A DNA stretch of 64,000 nt from an uncultured bacterium (GTDB lineage Bacteria > Omnitrophota > Gorgyraeia > Zapsychrales > Aceulaceae): NCBI GenBank assembly GCA_937930175.1, contig CALGLP010000006.1, positions 1,749 to 65,748 of the forward strand. Direction: 5' to 3'. The notes under the pieces are model-generated. The model saw only the letters and a list, made by a program, of their open reading frames with translations, did no database searches and was not told where the DNA came from. Positions 2,850-28,000 of this stretch are shown here, one piece after another (position 1 is the first letter of the stretch; each line of letters starts with the position of its first letter). Made by a program: the position numbers and the translations under genes.

Positions 2850-4929
2850 TCTCTCCGCAACTTCCATTCAGTATCTTAAAGGTGTTGGGCCTAAGCGCAA
2901 AGAAACCTTTGAACGTTTGGGCGTTACAACGGTCGAAGACCTTCTTTATTTCTTTCCCAGGCGTTATGAGGACCGCACGAAAATGACGCCTTTGTCCCAG
3001 CTTAAAGTCGGTGAATGGCAAATCGTAACGGGAAAAATCTTAAACCACAGCGGCCGCCAAAGTTGGTATACAAAAAAACATGTTTATGAAGTGGAGTTAG
3101 GGGATGAGACTTCGCGTATTTTTTGTGTGTGGTTTAACCGTCCGTATCTTGATCGTTATTTTAAGGCAGGCCAACAGCTTGTTGTTTATGGCAAGGTGGA
3201 TTTGTATAAGGACCGTTTTCAGCTCAATTCCCCAGATTATGAAATAATTACCGACGATGAAGAGGAGCAATCTTTAAGCTTAGGGCGTATTGTTCCGGTC
3301 TATCCAGCTACGCGTGGGATCAGCCAAAGGTATTTGCGTAAGACAATGAACGCTTGTTTGGAAAAATATGCATCATCCCTGGAAGATATTTTGCCTTATG
3401 ATCTTCGCAAGAAATATAAGCTTTATAATCTTGTTAAAAGTCTTGGTCAAATTCATTTTCCGGAAAATTTTAATGCGCAAGAGGCGGCTTACAAGCGTGT
3501 TTCATTTGAAGAATTCTTTTTGTTTCAGATCTCTGTCTTTTTGAGGCGCTTGAGCATTGTGACCAAAAAAGGGATTGCGCATCAGATCGATGAAGGTTTT
3601 TACAAGAAATTTATTGGGCTTTTTCCCTTTGAATTGACCTCGGCTCAGATAAAGGTGATTAAGGAAATTGCAGGCAATTTAAGTGCTCCATCACCCATGC
3701 ATCGGCTTTTGCAAGGGGATGTGGGTTCAGGAAAAACATTGGTTGCTTTTTTTGGATGTCTAGCCGCTGTTGACAATGGGTATCAAGCTGCGTTGATGGC
3801 GCCAACTGAAATCCTTGCGCGTCAGCATTTTCAGAATTTAACGAAAATTCTTGAGGGTTCTGTTTTTAAAGATGTCTCGGTTAAGCTTTTGACTAATGAG
3901 CTTGATCCTAAAGATCGCGTAGGTATTGTTGAAGATACAAAGCAAGGCAAGGTGGATATCCTGATTGGTACCCATGCCTTGATTCAAAATGAGGTCTATT
4001 TTAAGAATTTAAGCTTTGCGGTCATTGATGAACAGCATAAATTTGGTGTGCGCCAGCGAGCGCTTTTATCCGCCAAGGGAAGGAATCCGGATATCTTGGT
4101 TATGACAGCAACGCCGATTCCGCGGACCTTGTGCCTCACTCTTTATGGTGATTTAGATGTTTCCACGATCAACGAGATTCCTCCTGGTCGAGGAACCGTG
4201 AGTACGTTTCTTTTTCAAAATGAAAACGCAGGGCAAGCGTATCGCATGGTTGCCGAGGCTGTCAAACGTGGCGAACAGGCGTATATTATTTATCCGATTA
4301 TCGACGACTCTGAGAAGCTTGACTTAAAATCCGCCCAGCAGATGTTCAAGGAGCTTCAGGCGCTTGTCTTTAAAGAATACAAGCTTGGGCTTTTGCATGG
4401 CCAGATGAAAAAACAGCAGGCACAAGTGGTCATGAAAAAGTTTATTGAAAAAGAAATTGATATTTTGGTCGCAACGACTATCCTAGAGGTAGGCGTGGAT
4501 GTCCCCAACGCAACGATGATGGTCATTGAGCATGCGGATCGTTTTGGCCTTTCGACCCTTCATCAGCTGCGTGGACGTATTGGCCGCGGGGCAAAGGATG
4601 CCAAGTGCTTGCTCGTTGCCGAGGCCGCAACCCTGGAGGCCCAGGCGCGCATGGATGCGATTTTATCCACGAATGATGGTTTTGTGATCGCGCAAAAAGA
4701 TTTGATGATCCGAGGGCCTGGGGAATTCTTTGGCCGTCATCAGCATGGGCTTAATGAACTTAAAGTGGCTAATCCGCAGACACAGCTTGATGTTTTGGAG
4801 CAAGCCCGCGAAGAAGCTATGCATATTGTCAAGGATGACCCTCGTCTTGAAAAGAAGGCATCGGTAACGATTAAGCAGGTTATTTTGAAACGTTATCCAG
4901 CCTATTTGGCGAATATTTTGTCAGGATGA
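2821..4929 (+). CDS. recG: ATP-dependent DNA helicase RecG
   Basis: 702 aa. N-terminal wedge/OB region, Walker A GSGKT, DEQH box, helicase C motifs (QLRGRIGRG). Confidence 0.9.
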   Translation: MSRLIRRMHNLSATSIQYLKGVGPKRKETFERLGVTTVEDLLYFFPRRYEDRTKMTPLSQLKVGEWQIVTGKILNHSGRQSWYTKKHVYEVELGDETSRIFCVWFNRPYLDRYFKAGQQLVVYGKVDLYKDRFQLNSPDYEIITDDEEEQSLSLGRIVPVYPATRGISQRYLRKTMNACLEKYASSLEDILPYDLRKKYKLYNLVKSLGQIHFPENFNAQEAAYKRVSFEEFFLFQISVFLRRLSIVTKKGIAHQIDEGFYKKFIGLFPFELTSAQIKVIKEIAGNLSAPSPMHRLLQGDVGSGKTLVAFFGCLAAVDNGYQAALMAPTEILARQHFQNLTKILEGSVFKDVSVKLLTNELDPKDRVGIVEDTKQGKVDILIGTHALIQNEVYFKNLSFAVIDEQHKFGVRQRALLSAKGRNPDILVMTATPIPRTLCLTLYGDLDVSTINEIPPGRGTVSTFLFQNENAGQAYRMVAEAVKRGEQAYIIYPIIDDSEKLDLKSAQQMFKELQALVFKEYKLGLLHGQMKKQQAQVVMKKFIEKEIDILVATTILEVGVDVPNATMMVIEHADRFGLSTLHQLRGRIGRGAKDAKCLLVAEAATLEAQARMDAILSTNDGFVIAQKDLMIRGPGEFFGRHQHGLNELKVANPQTQLDVLEQAREEAMHIVKDDPRLEKKASVTIKQVILKRYPAYLANILSG

Positions 4930-16906: not shown

Positions 16907-17415
16907 AGAGTGAATAGTGAAAAGTATCTAGCAGTGGTTGAATAAGGGTTAGAGGAATAGTTGATTAAAGGGGTAAAAAGCAAATTGTGAATGGCGATGA
17001 AGATTCAGCAAAAGACGTAAAAATTAGAAGCTTCAGGAATCTAAATATTTGGAATCTTGGTAAGGAAATTGTTGTTGAGACTTACAAAATTACTAGAAAT
17101 TTTCCCAAAGAAGAGGCTTTTGGCCTTACATCGCAGATGCGTAGGGCAGCTGTTTCCATTCCTTCGAATGTTGCAGAAGGGTTTAATCGTTATCATAATA
17201 AGGAGTACAAACAGTTTCTTTTTCTTGCTCTGGGTTCCTGCGCTGAGCTTGAAACGCAGGCTGAAATATCCCTTGAATTAGATTATATTGATATTGCTAC
17301 CAAAGAAAGATTGCTTGAGAAGATCGTATATGAGTCAAAGATGATTCGAAATCTTATTAAAAAGTTGTAAGTTCCTTTATTTTTACTAGATGCTCTTCAC
17401 TAGATACTAGATACA
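16907..17415 (+). mobile_element. IR-flanked four-helix-bundle gene cassette 2
   Basis: Upstream gtgaagagtgaatagtgaaaagtatctag and downstream ctagatgctcttcactagatactagatac are mutually inverted (gtgaagag/ctcttcac, tatctag/ctagata). Confidence 0.45.
16987..17370 (+). CDS. Four-helix-bundle protein (23S rRNA IVS protein family)
   Basis: RRAAVSIPSNVAEGFNR...GSCAELETQ. 127 aa. Confidence 0.8.
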   Translation: MNGDEDSAKDVKIRSFRNLNIWNLGKEIVVETYKITRNFPKEEAFGLTSQMRRAAVSIPSNVAEGFNRYHNKEYKQFLFLALGSCAELETQAEISLELDYIDIATKERLLEKIVYESKMIRNLIKKL

Positions 17416-19156: not shown

Positions 19157-20770
19157 CTAAATGCTGCTCTTTGTGGGTAGTTCAATGATAAATTTTGTTC
19201 CCTTTCCAGGTGTACTTTCTACCAAAATTCTTCCATTGTGATCTTCAATAATCCGCTGTGTAATGGAAAGTCCTAGGCCCGTGCCATGATCTTTTTTGGT
19301 ATAAAAGGGATCAAAGATGTGCTTGAGGTCTTTAGGCAAGATGCCGATACCTGTGTCTTCAACGATGATGGTGATCTTTTTTTCATGAGGTATTATCCCG
19401 ACAGATAGTTCTCCACCGGTGTTCATTGCGTCAATCGCGTTGAGGAGGATATTGAGAAGCGCCTGGCGAAGGCGGTTTAAGTCAGCGTTTATTAGAAAGT
19501 TGCTGTTGGGGGCGTATTTCCTAATGACCTTAATATTGTGCTTTAAGAAGTTGCTGTTAAGAAAATCAACTGTGTTGTCGACCAGTGAACAGATATCAAG
19601 GTTCTTTAAGTTTAAGGGGGATGGCTTGGCAAACTCAAGAAGTTCGTGCACAAGTTGGTCAATGCGATCAACCTCGCGTCCTACAATTTTAGAGAAATTT
19701 TTAAGAAACTCTTTATCGTCAAGTTTTTCTGGAAGGTATTCAGTGAACGTCTTGACAGCCGTCAGGGGATTGCGGATTTCGTGCGCAATGCCTCCTGCAA
19801 GGATGCCAATCGATTTTAGCTTTTCAGCGCGCAGGAGCTCTTCTTTAAGAAATTCGTTTTCATGCACAATTTCTTCATGAGTGCCGTGGAAAAAGAGTTT
19901 ATCGATGAAATTTTGTATTTTGTTTTTAAGTGGATAGAATATTACAGAAATAATCGCACAGGAAGAAACGGATGCAAACATCGTTTGATAGCCAGTTAGT
20001 TTCTGAAATATTTTCTCAAACACGATAACAAAGACTAGATAAATGATAGAAATTAAAGCTGCCAAAAGTGAGTAAGCAATGCTGCGCCTAAAGAAAATAT
20101 TTATTTCCATTAATTTGTGCTTGATGATTGCGTACATAAAGGTCAAGACAAAAATTGTTGCTGGTATGAAGCCAATAGGCCTTATGTTAATTGTATAATT
20201 TGGAAGAAAATCAAGTCCGGATAGGGTAAAAATTCCATAACCAATCAGGATGTATTTTATTTGAGATCGCTTTAAATCTGGTATTCTTTTATTTCTTGAT
20301 GCGATTACTAGAAAACTAAATGCAAATATGGCAATAAAGAGAAACATGATAAGAAAGTATGGATGCAGGATCCCTGCCCTAGGGTAGGGGCCCCACGGAT
20401 AGTTGTGCATGTTTGAAATGATTAAGTTACTTGTTAGGATGAGCGTGCACACAAAGATGCTATATGTATATATAACTATTAAATATTTTCTTAGATTTAA
20501 AAGATTTAGATATAGATAAACGAAATGAAAGATGAAGGCTGGAATTAAGGCGATGCCACAATATGAAATCCGTATCCAGAAGGGGATTTCTTCTCCCATA
20601 GACCCCTTGCATAACATAAGAAGGTAATATGACAACCAGGTGGTAACGGAAAGACACAAAAGAAAGAAGATTTGATTAATTCTTGACCAGAGCCCTTTGA
20701 GTAAAACAAAGATTCCAGAATTGAGAATTAAGGTTGCGCATATAAGTTGTGATATTAAGAGAATTTTCAT
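19157..20770 (-). CDS. Sensor histidine kinase with polytopic N-terminal membrane domain
   Basis: N-terminal multi-TM region. H-box GIAHEIRNPL. HATPase motifs NAIDAM, DTGIGI, GTGLGL. Confidence 0.8.
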   Translation of the reverse strand: MKILLISQLICATLILNSGIFVLLKGLWSRINQIFFLLCLSVTTWLSYYLLMLCKGSMGEEIPFWIRISYCGIALIPAFIFHFVYLYLNLLNLRKYLIVIYTYSIFVCTLILTSNLIISNMHNYPWGPYPRAGILHPYFLIMFLFIAIFAFSFLVIASRNKRIPDLKRSQIKYILIGYGIFTLSGLDFLPNYTINIRPIGFIPATIFVLTFMYAIIKHKLMEINIFFRRSIAYSLLAALISIIYLVFVIVFEKIFQKLTGYQTMFASVSSCAIISVIFYPLKNKIQNFIDKLFFHGTHEEIVHENEFLKEELLRAEKLKSIGILAGGIAHEIRNPLTAVKTFTEYLPEKLDDKEFLKNFSKIVGREVDRIDQLVHELLEFAKPSPLNLKNLDICSLVDNTVDFLNSNFLKHNIKVIRKYAPNSNFLINADLNRLRQALLNILLNAIDAMNTGGELSVGIIPHEKKITIIVEDTGIGILPKDLKHIFDPFYTKKDHGTGLGLSITQRIIEDHNGRILVESTPGKGTKFIIELPTKSSI

Positions 20771-20774
20771 ATTG

Positions 20775-20840
20775 TCTATAGGGCTTTTTTACCGCCTTCA
20801 ACACCTCTTCGGCGTTAAAAGGCTTGACGATATAGTCGCA
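20775..20840 (-). repeat. Remnant copy of receiver-gene 3' end (would encode ...DYIVKPFNAEEVLKAVK)
   Basis: About 52/55 nt identical to 21446-21500, the 3' end of the receiver CDS 21426..21788. Lies directly upstream of the kinase start. Confidence 0.6.
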
Positions 20841-20866
20841 AGCCAGCCAAGGCATTACGCCAACTC

Positions 20867-21112
20867 TTAAGCCTGAGCGACTTTGTGCAATATTTCAGAA
20901 ATAAACGTTTGGTATTTGACGCCGAGCTTTTCAGCCTTTTGTTTCAAGGTTCTGATGTCGTTGCTGTTGACCCGGATATTCAGGACAGCATCTTTTTTGC
21001 GCGCGGTAATGGCATTGACAATCTCTGTGTGTTCATCTTTGCCCAGAGGAATGAATTGTTCTAGGCTTTCTTCAATAAGCTTTTCTTCTTTTGTTAGTGT
21101 TATTTTTCTCAT
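20867..21112 (-). CDS. BrnA/CopG-like type II antitoxin
   Basis: 81 aa. Pattern ...NIRVNSNDIRTLKQKAEKLGVKYQTFISEILHK typical of BrnA-family antitoxins. Start overlaps the upstream toxin stop (ATGA). Confidence 0.6.
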   Translation of the reverse strand: MRKITLTKEEKLIEESLEQFIPLGKDEHTEIVNAITARKKDAVLNIRVNSNDIRTLKQKAEKLGVKYQTFISEILHKVAQA

Positions 21113-21369
21113 GATGTCTTTCCTTTTTTGTAAAGCTTCATTAGTTTTCTGCTTGGAAATATTGTTTTAAGGAAAATTTTGTTGCTCTCAACGACATAGG
21201 GCACTGCCCACAGGTATCCTTTGTGATCAAACACAAGGATTTATTGATGATCTTTTCCAAGGTTTTTTCGTATGTCAATGAGTCGGGCATGGATAATTTC
21301 TTCGAACGAGACTCCGCGCGTTCGTTTTAGCCGTTTACTTTTTAGTAAGTTCCACCTGATTTCTTTCAT
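21109..21369 (-). pseudogene. BrnT/DUF497-like toxin gene interrupted by an in-frame TAA
   Basis: Minus-strand translation MKEIRWNLLKSKRLKRTRGVSFEEIIHARLIDIRKNLGKDHQ*ILVFDHKGYLWAVPYVVESNKIFLKTIFPSRKLMKLYKKGKTS. The stop at 21241-21243 is in frame. Confidence 0.5.
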
Positions 21370-21425
21370 GGCTCTTCAGATGTATATACAATTGTAATAT
21401 ATTAGGATTTATTGTCAAAAGAAAA

Positions 21426-21788
21426 TTATTTCAATGAAGACTTTACCGCCTTTAACACCTCTTCGGCTTTAAAAGGCTTGACGATATAGCCGCAAGCTCC
21501 CAGGCGCACTGCTTCTTCAACCGTTTCGACCGATTTGTATCCTGTGATCATGATGATTTTAAGGCTGGGGCGCAGTTCCTTCATCTTTTCCAAGACTTCA
21601 AGGCCATTGATTTTTGGCATTTTGATATCCATTAAAACAAGGCTAATGTCAGGCGCATTCTTGATGCAGTCGAGGGCTTGAAGCCCATCTTCGGTCAGGA
21701 TGAGGTTATGTTGGTCGCCTAAGATTAGCTTGAGCGATTCCCTGACACCGAGTTCATCATCGACGATAAGGATTTTTTTGTTTAGCAT
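21426..21788 (-). CDS. Single-domain response regulator (receiver only)
   Basis: ILIVDDE, LMDIKMP, MITG, VKPF motifs. 120 aa. Confidence 0.85.
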   Translation of the reverse strand: MLNKKILIVDDELGVRESLKLILGDQHNLILTEDGLQALDCIKNAPDISLVLMDIKMPKINGLEVLEKMKELRPSLKIIMITGYKSVETVEEAVRLGACGYIVKPFKAEEVLKAVKSSLK

Positions 21789-21819
21789 AGAGCTCTCCTT
21801 GTATTGATAGGGCTATTTT

Positions 21820-22386
21820 TTATAATTGCACCGGAGACACGATCACAATCGCCTTAGCCAGGCTTTGGCTATTATTAATAAATTGATGCTTTTCATCCGC
21901 GGAAAAATAGAGTGAATTCTTGGGCGAGAGATCATAGCTTTTGTCCGCTATCTTAACGCAAAGGGTTCCCTCCAAGACAAAGACAAATTTCTCGCTTGTT
22001 TTCTGGCAAACTTCAATGTTTGTCTGCCCCCCAGGGTCAACTCTAAGCAGGGTAGGCATCATTTTCTTGGTAAGGATTTTATTGGTCAAGATTTCATAAG
22101 AAGATTTCTCGTTGTAATTAAAAACATCCGCCAAGCTCTCGTTACTCAGGACTTCTATTTTGTTTTCGTGCTTTGTCTCGGTCTTAACATCCTGATAAAG
22201 TTCGGTCAAGTCAATGCCGAAGGCTTGAGCGATCTGGATGTGCGACTCAAGGGTTCCTGTCATCTTTTGGTTTTCTATGCGGCTTAGGGTCGCGATCTGT
22301 ACACCACTTTTTTCTGCAAGCTCGGTTAAGGACATTTTTCTTGTCTTGCGCAATTCTTTTATTTTTGATCCGATCAAAACAATCAC
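21820..22386 (-). CDS. XRE-family HTH transcriptional regulator with C-terminal cupin domain
   Basis: N-terminal HTH (LRKTRKMSLTELAEKSGVQIATLSRIEN). C-terminal cupin-like beta region. 188 aa. Confidence 0.8.
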   Translation of the reverse strand: MIVLIGSKIKELRKTRKMSLTELAEKSGVQIATLSRIENQKMTGTLESHIQIAQAFGIDLTELYQDVKTETKHENKIEVLSNESLADVFNYNEKSSYEILTNKILTKKMMPTLLRVDPGGQTNIEVCQKTSEKFVFVLEGTLCVKIADKSYDLSPKNSLYFSADEKHQFINNSQSLAKAIVIVSPVQL

Positions 22387-24964: not shown

Positions 24965-25070
24965 TCAAGGTAGGCGTTTACCTGGCTGGTAGCTGTTAGT
25001 GAAATAGATTAAGGTGAAGTTCGTTTTGGCCAAGACATCATTTGATATTTTCGATAACAAGGAGGGCCAG

Positions 25071-28000
25071 ATGCAAAAGAGAAGAATTTTTATCGCGTTG
25101 GTTGTTTTGTCTTTGATCTTTAGTTCACCTAAGCTTTGGGCTGCCGCGAGTCAAGAGGGACCAAAATCTCAACAGCAAGTTTTCTCAACAGAAGATAAGT
25201 CTCAGCCCGCAGAGCAAGGATTTTCTCTCAAAAAAGAACAGTTATCGACGAGCGATGCGAAGTCTTCTCCTGCTGCTCTTTATGAGGACAGAGCTTTTCA
25301 ATCCGTTGAAAGGCTTGACGTTGATCCTGCCACAGGAACCGCGACTGTTGGGATTCCTATTTCTGTTCCATTAGGGCGCGCTGGCATCCAGCCATCGATT
25401 GCCTTGGCGTATAATTCTAGTTTTTCTAATGGGCTTATGGGTATGGGCTGGAGTCTTGAATTTGGCAAAATAAGCCGATCAACTAAATATGGCATGCCCA
25501 CCTATACTAATACCGATTGTTTTGTTTTGACACATTCTGGATCCCGACAAGAGTTGGTTGACGTAAGCGGCAATGCCACGCTGTTTCGCCCTGAGATTGA
25601 TGATGCCTTTATGAAGATAGAATTTGTCAACGGTTCGTATTGGCGGGTGACGGATAAAAAAGGTATTGGTTATTATTTTGGTCAGACCGCAGCGTCGCAG
25701 ATCGTTGATCCAAGCAACAGTGCGAATGTTTTTGAGTGGTATTTAGACAAGGTTGAAGATATGTATGGCAATGACATGAGCTTAACGTACATCAAGGATC
25801 AAAACCAGATTTATCCCTATCAGATTCACTATACGGGAAATACTCCGGGAAATTTATTACCTTTCGCAACCATTGAATTTGAGACGGAAAGCAGGCCAGA
25901 CACGATGTTTTCTTACTTGACGCGTTTTTTGATTAGAACAGAGAAGCGTATATCAGCTGTGAAAGTTTTTGCTCAAGGCGTTCTTCAGCGAAAATATCAA
26001 CTCGTTTATTCGCAGAGTCCTATGACGCAGCGATCGCTTCTTTCACAGGTTATTCAATACGGCGCTGATGGCGTGAGCAGTTTGCCAGCAACGACGTTTA
26101 CTTACCAGCAAGGGGATAAAGGATTTCAGGTTGCCTCCGGATGGAATATTCCGGCAAATGCTAAATTTGCTGAATACCAGCAGGGTAATCGTTATGCGGA
26201 TTTGGGCGTGCGCATTGCGGATGTCAACTCCGACGGCTATCCAGACCTTCTTCGCTATCATCAGTATAGCAATGGAACGACAATCCGAGAGACATTTTTG
26301 CATAATAAGAACCAAGGATGGGAGGCCTCATCTGCAGAGTGGAAGTTTCCAGCGAGCTTGGCTAATTTCTTATTAACCGCTCCAGAGATCGATAAGGCTT
26401 TTGGACTTTGTCTTGCGGATGTTAACGGCGATGGGTGGGTTGATCTTTTTCGCCACTTTCAGGATCATCCGGCGAATGCAGGGGGAGTGATTACCAATCA
26501 AGCTTTTATTAATAACCATGTTAATGGATGGGATCTTGATGCGAGCTGGCAACTTCCTGAGGAGGGTGTTTTGCCGATCAACTGGGTTGTTTCCCAGTCG
26601 GGTTATTTTTATCATGAATATACGGGCAACATCATCGACGATGTTAATGGTGATGGCTTTGCGGATTATGTGAAATCAAAAAAAGAGGGATTTGGACCTC
26701 AAGCGCATATGACGTTTATCAACAAGAAGCCTTTAGCAGGTGGATGGACTTATAATAGTGCGTGGAATACGCAAGATTCGATTTACACTGATTTTGCTCA
26801 TGGCGCTATTCTTGCTGATCTTAATGGTGATAATTTGAAAGATATCATGTATTCAAAAGAGGGAATAATCAAAGTTTTTATTAATAACGGAGCAACGTGG
26901 TATGAAGACGACAGTTCTCCGTGGAAAAATGAGTTTGGGTATACAAATTTCAGCGATGGATCAACGCAGTGTGCGGATATTAATGGAGATGGATTAGTGG
27001 ATTTGATTGTCTCCAGCGACGCGTCCGAGAAAGCCTTGCTTAACAATGGTCAAGGGTGGGTCTTAGATTATGCTTGGGTTGTTCCTGGTAATTTAAAAAG
27101 TAATGGCACTAAGCTTCTTGATGCCGATGCCGATGGCATGTTGGATGTTGTGAAACATTTTAATGGAACGACTCCGGAAGTTTACTTGAGCAGGGGCAAG
27201 GTCCCGGATCTTTTAGTTGAAATGAACAATGGCATGGGTGGGGCAAGAGTGATCAGCTATGATTCTGCCTGTCATTACAATAATGATTTTTTTCCTTTTG
27301 CCGCGCAGGTTGTTCAATCGTTAACCCTTAGCAGCGGAGATGGGGATTCGTATACAACCTATTATACGTATGGCCATGGGTTGTGGAGTGCGAGCAAGCG
27401 AGAGTCGCGTGGTTTTGGTTATGTGAAAGTCATGGAAGCAGAGGGTAATTACAGCGAGACCTATATGCATCAGGATGACATTTATAAGGGAAAGATTGAT
27501 CGTCAGGAACATTATGATGGGAGCGGAAATCTTTTTTCCAAGGCCGTTTATCAGTGGAATCATCAACAGCTTGATCCGAGTGTTTTTTTTGTTTATCTTG
27601 AGCAGGTGGATCAATTTGTTTATGATGGAAATACGACGGGCGTGCGAACGCAGGAAAAATATTTTTATGAAGAGTCGCCACAATATGGCAATGCTACAAA
27701 GACCGTTCAGCTGGGCAGGGTGGATCTCACAACCGGAGAGGACATGGGTGTTGATAGCCGAACGGTTGAGGCAGCCTATCATAACAATGTAGAAAGTGGT
27801 CATTGGTTTATTGGGATTCCTAAACAAGTTATTGTTAAGGATGATGGGGGTACACAAGTTCGCAAGAGTTGGTTTTATTATGATGGCAGCAATGATATTA
27901 ATGCCTTGCCGGTTAAAGGGGCACTGACAAAAAAGCAGTTTTGGGCTGGCAATGATCCTGGCGCGGTTGACCCTGTTACGGAATACACCTACGACCCTTA

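Follow-up and report, generated by a model that had tools for sequence, protein, structure and literature searches.

A predicted type II toxin-antitoxin cassette with a broken toxin gene, lying between receiver and kinase in an Omnitrophota two-component locus

How did a toxin-antitoxin (TA) cassette with a broken toxin gene come to lie inside a two-component operon, flanked by two copies of the end of a neighboring gene, and what has become of it there? This question is raised by a 64,000-nucleotide stretch of DNA from an uncultured Omnitrophota bacterium (contig CALGLP010000006.1, positions 1,749 to 65,748), which we call the window. Coordinates are positions in this window unless a relative is named; the loci of relatives, taken from contigs of metagenome-assembled genomes (MAGs) or from assemblies, carry L-numbers. 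The XRE-cupin regulator, the receiver, the toxin frame, the antitoxin and the kinase are each encoded on the minus strand. The receiver is a single-domain response regulator of 120 aa (21426–21788, Response_reg E 1.7e-27), the kinase is a seven-transmembrane (7TM) sensor histidine kinase of 537 aa (19157–20770), and the insert between their genes measures 598 bp. It holds a BrnT-like toxin pseudogene of 86 codons (21109–21369, its translation joined across a stop codon) and an intact gene for an 81-aa CopG antitoxin of the ribbon-helix-helix (RHH) type (20867–21112). As described in the initial annotation, the toxin stop and the antitoxin start overlap as ATGA (21109–21112).

Judged from its sequence, the insert appears to be a type II TA cassette placed between receiver and kinase. 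The reading that we favor, and regard as reasonably probable, is that this cassette was inserted long ago in an Omnitrophota-like lineage, that its toxin has died while its antitoxin has been kept, and that the core of the flanking repeat has been gene-converted.

The toxin frame is broken at codon 43 by an in-frame TAA (21241–21243). We examined contigs from NCBI (GCA_036722365.1), ENA (ERZ724081-84) and the Logan runs SRR3330208, SRR3330211 and ERR7850085. Eight contigs were 100% identical wherever they covered positions 20600–21900; six of them span this whole region and all eight span the TAA. The stop codon is therefore not an assembly error but, as first proposed, genuine, and the toxin null allele is fixed in the sampled population. 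An alternative genetic code was also considered and rejected: TAA terminates the receiver and antitoxin genes as well, and long open reading frames (ORFs) are normal under code 11.

We sought an uninterrupted receiver-kinase junction in relatives and found it in four syntenic loci (L010, L098, L099/L100 and L095), in which the receiver stop lies 3–12 nt from the kinase ATG. Thus, the cassette is an insertion. At the same junction, four other lineages carry a cassette (L101, L109 with L009, L110/L111 and L112). L109 and L009 are two contigs of one MAG, CAZAOD01, and overlap by 55 nt (L109 3729–3783 and L009 1–55) where the receiver-like repeat begins; the repeat caused the assembly, at a k-mer of 55, to break here. 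Repeat-flanked loci of this type can be expected to be split often in short-read MAGs. A metagenome scan with the HD-GYP neighbor yielded 6 loci, none of which extended to the junction. Toxin and antitoxin genes are adjacent in L101, L109, L110 and L112, and also in L103 and L105.

The state of the toxin differs among these lineages. It is intact in L101 and L110/L111; codon 43 is TAA in the window and TAG in L109 (3370–3372), and in L112 the start codon ATG has become CTG. L110, a close relative of L109 (their XRE genes are 95% identical), has CAG at codon 43, so the TAG of L109 is an independent C-to-T change. By this comparison the toxin has died independently in at least three lineages with the antitoxin conserved. 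The TAA does inactivate the toxin of the window, as had been claimed, but it is not a one-off event. Both stop-bearing alleles, those of the window and L109, have also lost the near-invariant P37, which is expected under relaxed constraint.

The antitoxin, by comparison, was correctly described as retained. Its 81-aa ORF is intact, and its ratio of nonsynonymous to synonymous substitution rates (dN/dS) between lineages is 0.01 for L109 against L110 and 0.09 for the window against L112, with 0.14 for the toxin. These values indicate strong purifying selection on the antitoxin. The gene has its own AGGA-type ribosome-binding site upstream of its ATG.

How the cassette arrived has to be read from its flanks. 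A repeat search of the window revealed a direct repeat of 56 nt, 53/56 identical (95%), with a start-to-start spacing of 654; the copies match each other by BLAST within the window at E of about 1e-20, and BLAST found no third copy in the 64 kb. Copy 1 (21442–21497) corresponds to receiver codons ~98–116. Copy 2 (20788–20843, ACDYIVKPFNAEEVLKAVK) is what remains of a receiver 3′ end, no longer functional, and is the counterpart of the remnants in L009, L110 and L112. The repeat reported earlier is thus real, although the coordinates given for it (21446–21500 and 20778–20832) were off. An extension of the remnant homology upstream of 20843 was rejected, as the 23 nt there are ~35% identical, which is the chance level.

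The homology ends abruptly at both edges of the repeat. The receiver gene closes with 16 nt (gtcttcattgaaataa, ending in KSSLK and a stop) that bear no relation to the 17 nt separating copy 2 from the kinase ATG (aaagccctatagacaat, 20771–20787). Read directly, these 17 nt are an old receiver tail and its junction. When one A is restored to their A-run, the tail reads KKAL followed by a stop, with the TAG 5 nt ahead of the kinase ATG; being readable in this way after a one-base loss, it is therefore a decayed coding end. Similar tails are found on the remnants of L009, L110 and L112 and on the receiver gene of L095. When copy 2 sets the frame (ORF 20676–20855), the kinase ATG (20770) is indeed out of frame, with an offset of 85 nt.

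The same pattern recurs in the relatives. The window, L109, L110 and L112 share their left junction, which consists of the receiver stop, 4–6 nt and then TTGACAATA. Their receiver tails are of one type (K-S-x-L/M-K-stop), and the remnant tails of the window, L109/L009, L110 and L112 are of a second type (K-K-...; gt[ag]aaaaaa...), which is also the class of the receiver tail in the cassette-free L095. The remnants measure ~80 nt in L009 and ~85 nt in L110; that of L112, where stop and start overlap as TAATG, reaches 100 nt or more. These remnants are 79–84% identical to the receiver 3′ end of their own genome. Over the 56-nt core, the window remnant matches its own receiver at 53/56 positions, that of L109/L009 at 47/56 and that of L110 at 44/56. 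Between the window cassette and the others, synonymous sites have reached saturation.

In L101 the antitoxin is fused in frame to a receiver remnant of 35–42 nt. The fusion protein (L101 1203–1475) lacks the usual antitoxin C-terminus (VAQA and a stop) and instead runs from ...ILHK directly into EEVLATVKSTLKR and a stop. Four of the 6 codons changed between this remnant and the receiver are synonymous or stop-to-stop changes, so the remnant there is probably translated. At an unrelated, intergenic locus (L105), a cassette lies within a perfect 26-nt direct repeat (CCCAGCCACATAAACCTCTCTGAATC, 2684–2709 and 3541–3566, spacing 857 nt), around which Rfam gave no match. As this cassette is also bracketed by repeats, flanking repeats may be a general trait of its insertion.

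The shared left junction, the two tail classes and the saturated synonymous sites suggest that the insertion is old and that the repeat is unlikely to be an untouched footprint. One old insertion for the window, L109, L110 and L112 would be the simplest reading of these sequences. Since the 95% identity is confined to a sharply bounded 56 nt, and the remnants of the relatives are longer and more diverged, the core of the window most probably owes its identity to later gene conversion between the copies. The proposed course of events would run as follows. In a locus of the order XRE-cupin / receiver / kinase / HD-GYP, the cassette entered between the second and third of these genes and would have left another receiver 3′ end, now non-coding, beside the kinase start. 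This remnant carries a -1 frameshift in the window, and gene conversion would have homogenized its 56-nt core with the 3′ end of the functional receiver. The toxin is now null, through the TAA at codon 43 plus the loss of H36 and P37. The flanking direct repeats may still be a ready substrate for precise excision of the cassette.

Several other explanations have to be weighed, beginning with the possibility that the repeat or the TAA is an artefact, that is, a chimeric join at the repeat or a miscalled base. Repeats of ~55 nt do disrupt short-read assemblies, and the end of L109 and the start of L009 overlap by 55 nt at exactly this point; against this, at least three data sets and different assemblers agree across both repeat copies and the TAA, over an identical 1301 nt, and we give an artefact next to no credence. 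The stop might also fail to disable the toxin: it could be read through, it could split the toxin into two fragments (with re-initiation at GTG-46 here and ATG-45 in L109), or it could leave a 42-aa N-terminal, non-toxic partner of the antitoxin. The window (TAA) and L109 (TAG) have independently acquired nonsense mutations at codon 43, the chance that both fall in one codon being ~0.023, every invariant residue downstream of the stop is kept, and an in-frame GTG or ATG follows 2–3 codons past it. However, the best 120 of 704 homologues are uninterrupted, no evident Shine-Dalgarno sequence precedes the internal starts, and the loss of P37 in both stop alleles (and of H36 here) together with the lost start codon of L112 is a pattern of decay. 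A 1-in-40 coincidence among few events is not extraordinary, and we regard the shared codon as notable but not compelling and a toxin that survives its stop as improbable. Very doubtful, too, is the bolder proposal that the stop at codon 43 is a recurrently selected state, in which a harmless 42-aa fragment (or a split or readthrough toxin) partners the antitoxin and the domesticated cassette drives the sensor kinase as an autoregulated promoter-repressor module. The initial annotation had seen insertion by duplication of the target, followed by toxin inactivation; spelled out, this would be a recent insertion in this genome, with 55–56 bp of target duplicated, the copies diverging by ~5% and the toxin knocked out afterwards. 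The sharply bounded 56-nt repeat of 95% identity that flanks the insert would fit such an event, as would the existence of relatives with an empty junction. Nevertheless, the tails past the copies are unrelated, so there was no simple duplication up to the insertion point; the same cassette, junction and tail classes occur in lineages whose synonymous sites are saturated relative to the window; and the remnant varies in length (35–42, 56 or ~80–100 nt) around an insert that encodes no transposase or integrase. Insertion at the junction thus stands, but a fresh duplication of the target probably does not, and we consider a recent event of this kind quite unlikely.

The more serious competitor is lateral spread, which we hold as a tentative possibility well below vertical descent from an old insertion. 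Here a unit made of the receiver 3′ portion, the promoter, the toxin and the antitoxin would move among relatives by homologous recombination. One end would enter by a crossover in the receiver, and the other would be joined, illegitimately or through short homology, upstream of the 3′ end of the resident receiver. This could be achieved by homology-facilitated illegitimate recombination or by Campbell-type integration of a circle excised via the repeats. One repeat copy would then be the donor's receiver 3′ allele and the other the recipient's, the occupied junctions would be separate acquisitions, and L095 would be either the uninvaded state or the product of inter-repeat recombination. Several observations count against a single old insertion, and some of them favor such movement. 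Occupied and empty states are interleaved among the relatives (L101 and L010, L109/L110 and L095, L112 and L099), so that one ancient insertion needs several independent losses. The empty loci L098, L099 and L010 have a receiver tail of the upstream type beside the kinase, which simple inter-repeat recombination would not produce. The junctions of L101 differ from the others, with a 40-nt left spacer and a remnant similar to the receiver of L101 itself. Comparison of L109 with L110 gives a mosaic of identities, and the synonymous divergence (dS) of the cassette, 0.43–0.47, is three times that of XRE (0.15), raised over the receiver and the TA genes alike, which points to recombination in the locus. 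Additionally, the one sign of gene conversion in the window is the identity pattern, and a recent re-duplication would look alike. Lateral spread would further account for the unrelated tails of the two copies, both of which look like genuine receiver C-termini (KSSLK and KKAL, each with its stop), for the L095 receiver tail that fits the remnant class, and for the L105 cassette inside its perfect 26-nt repeat at an unrelated locus. In L110 the receiver 3′ end and the remnant differ at 11 codons, 9 of them synonymously, as expected if both copies had evolved as coding sequences before their juxtaposition. This excess was rejected as proof of a donor and recipient origin; it is not statistically decisive, since a constrained upstream copy alone yields ~60% synonymous changes. 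Moreover, no circular form, donor or recombinase was identified, and the common left junction and both tail classes of the window, L109, L110 and L112 are explained more simply by one event and vertical descent. An old, vertically inherited insertion with later gene conversion thus remains the reading that we prefer.

The insert itself contains toxin and antitoxin genes only, with no transposase or integrase among its ORFs, and the repeat search of the window found no inverted repeats at its ends. BLAST within the 64 kb detected no second copy of the cassette. A classical transposon-type target duplication finds no support: the duplicated length is 56 nt here, 35–42 nt in L101 and ~80–100 nt in L009, L110 and L112, there is no transposase, and the tails differ. 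Integrative islands, too, can duplicate the 3′ end of their target gene, at att sites in tRNA, tmRNA or protein genes. The locus is like them in that the direct repeats are the 3′ end of the upstream gene, with the functional gene intact and the displaced copy at the far side. In contrast to them, the insert is ~600 bp long without an integrase, the repeats range from 35 to 100 nt across lineages, and the tails differ.

To which families do the two proteins belong? The window toxin, joined across the stop, gave no Pfam or NCBIfam match at E<=0.1, including none to BrnT (PF04365). Its homologues number 704 at E<=1e-3, of which the best 120 measure 82–112 aa. Of the matches listed, the majority belong to Candidatus Omnitrophota; the name 'toxin' is given to several and 'DUF497 family' to one. 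Across 33 aligned homologues, codon 43 encodes K, R, Q or N. The window toxin keeps 18/18 family-invariant residues (the invariant set includes W6, K10, S11, R13, L14, K15, R18, G19, S21, F22, Y52, W54, P57, K68, T69 and R74), with the near-invariant H36 and P37 replaced by N and L. Pfam BrnT_toxin was matched below threshold by 28/34 members of the family (best E 5e-4), and the family profile found no match among PDB sequences and no reliable residue-level alignment to BrnT. The AlphaFold model of the nearest intact homologue (pLDDT 91) has BrnT (3U97) as its top PDB match (probability 1.00, TM 0.57/0.62), with RelE next, and shows the BrnT/RelE-like fold of an antiparallel four-stranded sheet on short helices. 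The model suggests that the toxin is a distant BrnT-like protein of the RelE fold, separate from DUF497 as defined at the Pfam level. A scan of viral contigs with the toxin profile returned 2 distant matches; in this collection, then, phages do not carry the family.

The antitoxin has more than 1000 homologues of 81–82 aa, many with a precomputed PF12441 label. The window protein itself scores 24.3 bits against PF12441 (E 5.6e-5, cut-off 28), and 41/41 aligned relatives match this CopG_antitoxin family at E<=0.01 (best 3.8e-7); all 41 match an RHH NikA-like model as well. The BrnA models were not reached by the window antitoxin (PF14384: E 0.029, 15.2 bits, cut-off 26.1; NF047399: 19.6 bits, cut-off 60) and were matched weakly by 8 of the 41 relatives. 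A search of PDB sequences with the antitoxin profile gave nothing meaningful. The protein is accordingly best classed, by its profile matches, as PF12441 CopG-type rather than BrnA. Of the labels first proposed, a BrnA/CopG-like antitoxin holds for CopG but not for BrnA, and a DUF497/BrnT toxin holds at the level of the top fold match only. Overall, the initial annotation was essentially right, except for the freshness of the duplication and the firmness of its DUF497 and BrnA labels.

The closest characterized system is BrnTA of Brucella abortus, an autoregulated type II system whose toxin is a RelE-like ribonuclease with Asp6, Glu7, Lys9, Arg41 and Glu78 as catalytic or toxicity residues (PMC5086665). 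Both systems encode two small proteins, with the toxin gene upstream of the antitoxin gene. The fold predicted for the toxin agrees (beta-alpha-alpha, four beta strands and a C-terminal helix), and the window antitoxin is of the RHH type, as is BrnA. The BrnTA promoter is autoregulated (PMC5086665); the operator of the cassette is putative. By analogy, the ancestral toxin may have been a ribonuclease neutralized by the RHH antitoxin. In contrast to BrnT, the toxin family falls below the Pfam threshold, with no match at all for the window copy, and finds no PDB sequence even by profile; in contrast to BrnA, the antitoxin family is matched by the CopG_antitoxin and NikA-like models. It is worth stressing that a large toxin family is hereby flagged below Pfam's BrnT threshold.

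The cassette brings its own strong predicted promoter, TTGACA-N16-TACAAT (21391–21418, minus strand), which agrees with the sigma-70 consensus at 11/12 positions and begins 7 nt past the receiver stop codon. Its position is conserved in 8 cassettes of the family. Across its -10 hexamer lie two overlapping palindromes (TACAATTGTA and GTATATAC) within the 15-mer TACAATTGTATATAC (21382–21396, minus strand). This 15-mer is identical in 8/8 cassettes examined, including those at the unrelated loci L102, L103 and L105, and for this reason is likely the antitoxin operator. We found no terminator-like site on the minus strand from receiver to kinase, and the kinase is thus probably co-transcribed through and from the cassette. 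The antitoxin would presumably still repress the cassette promoter, and this promoter may now contribute to kinase transcription. By analogy with other antitoxins, the retained protein may also neutralize many related toxins of these genomes. Upstream of the TA promoter of L103 (2631–2845) we observed a 96-nt tandem repeat in 2.2 copies, 100% identical, which holds a TTGACA-like motif.

Orphan antitoxins are commonly remnants of degraded TA systems, and reviewed surveys of Klebsiella and Mycobacterium suggest that they are possibly kept as regulators or anti-addiction modules (PMC7354431). Like such loci, the cassette has an intact antitoxin beside an inactivated toxin. Unlike them, its decay can be traced across lineages at one orthologous site, with three independent inactivations, two of them at one codon, and the cassette is embedded in a two-component operon. 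As a degraded type II TA cassette the locus is ordinary, and the BrnT-like/CopG family to which it belongs is abundant in Omnitrophota; loss of the toxin after an old insertion is an ordinary fate of selfish cassettes. Its unusual aspects are limited to the comparative series and the coincidence at one codon. The series is a natural one, at a single site in Omnitrophota-like lineages: the empty junction, the intact toxin, and three killed toxins with a conserved antitoxin, the leftover direct repeats being homogenized in some genomes and decayed in others. It illustrates the toxin-first decay of chromosomal TA cassettes, in which the antitoxin and a putative operator may persist inside a host operon.

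Further observations concern the surrounding locus. Related MAGs keep the order DUF6242-like gene, small ORF, XRE-cupin, receiver, kinase and HD-GYP. The XRE-HTH/cupin regulator, with which we begin the conserved locus (21820–22386, minus strand; Pfam HTH_3 E 3.5e-11, Cupin_2 E 2.2e-10), has orthologues upstream of the receiver in every relative. The receiver is 71–80% identical to those of syntenic relatives and the kinase 43–53%. The kinase matches HisKA_7TM (E 6.9e-12), HisKA (E 4.2e-13) and HATPase_c (E 1.9e-28). The 7TM sensor domains of all the kinases are 43–59% identical across lineages whose neighboring genes are 75–95% identical, which suggests fast evolution of, or recombination in, the sensor domain. 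Between L109 and L110, DNA identity is 94.4% upstream, 88.1% over the receiver and TA genes, 81% over the remnant and kinase start, 73.6% in the kinase and 82.6% in HD-GYP.

The kinase start is itself peculiar. The N-terminus is ~5 codons shorter than in all relatives and lacks the region of the conserved LNPFA(I/V)SGLL motif, and the ATG at 20770 has no Shine-Dalgarno sequence ahead of it. Gene callers favor Met58, which has AAGGGG upstream; the resulting protein of 480 aa loses part of the 7TM sensor domain. An exact look-up of the 537-aa kinase gave no match because gene callers take this later start. Beside it, a 59-aa ORF (20676–20855, minus strand) begins 9 nt past the antitoxin stop, crosses the remnant of the receiver and reaches 95 nt into the kinase gene. 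It has been annotated publicly as a gene several times (e.g., L001 6258–6437), but almost certainly the ORF is spurious and lies on a fragment of a decayed gene; annotation pipelines thus call the receiver remnant as a gene.

Farther out, an Rfam scan of the window returned tRNA-Ser only. Within a few kb of the locus (window ~25000–33000, according to the L001 annotation), a giant SpvB / TcdB / RHS-YD-shell protein is encoded, ~2600 aa in length, and the relative L099 has one too. Small genes for 23S-rRNA-IVP / bAvd-like four-helix bundles occupy differing positions of the conserved locus across relatives: 16987–17370 in the window, 3395–3787 in L095, 2383–2751 and 5535–5807 in L110, and 1764–2204 in L009. 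In L095 the gene is accompanied by one with an ORF6N domain. These genes look like another mobile small gene in these genomes.

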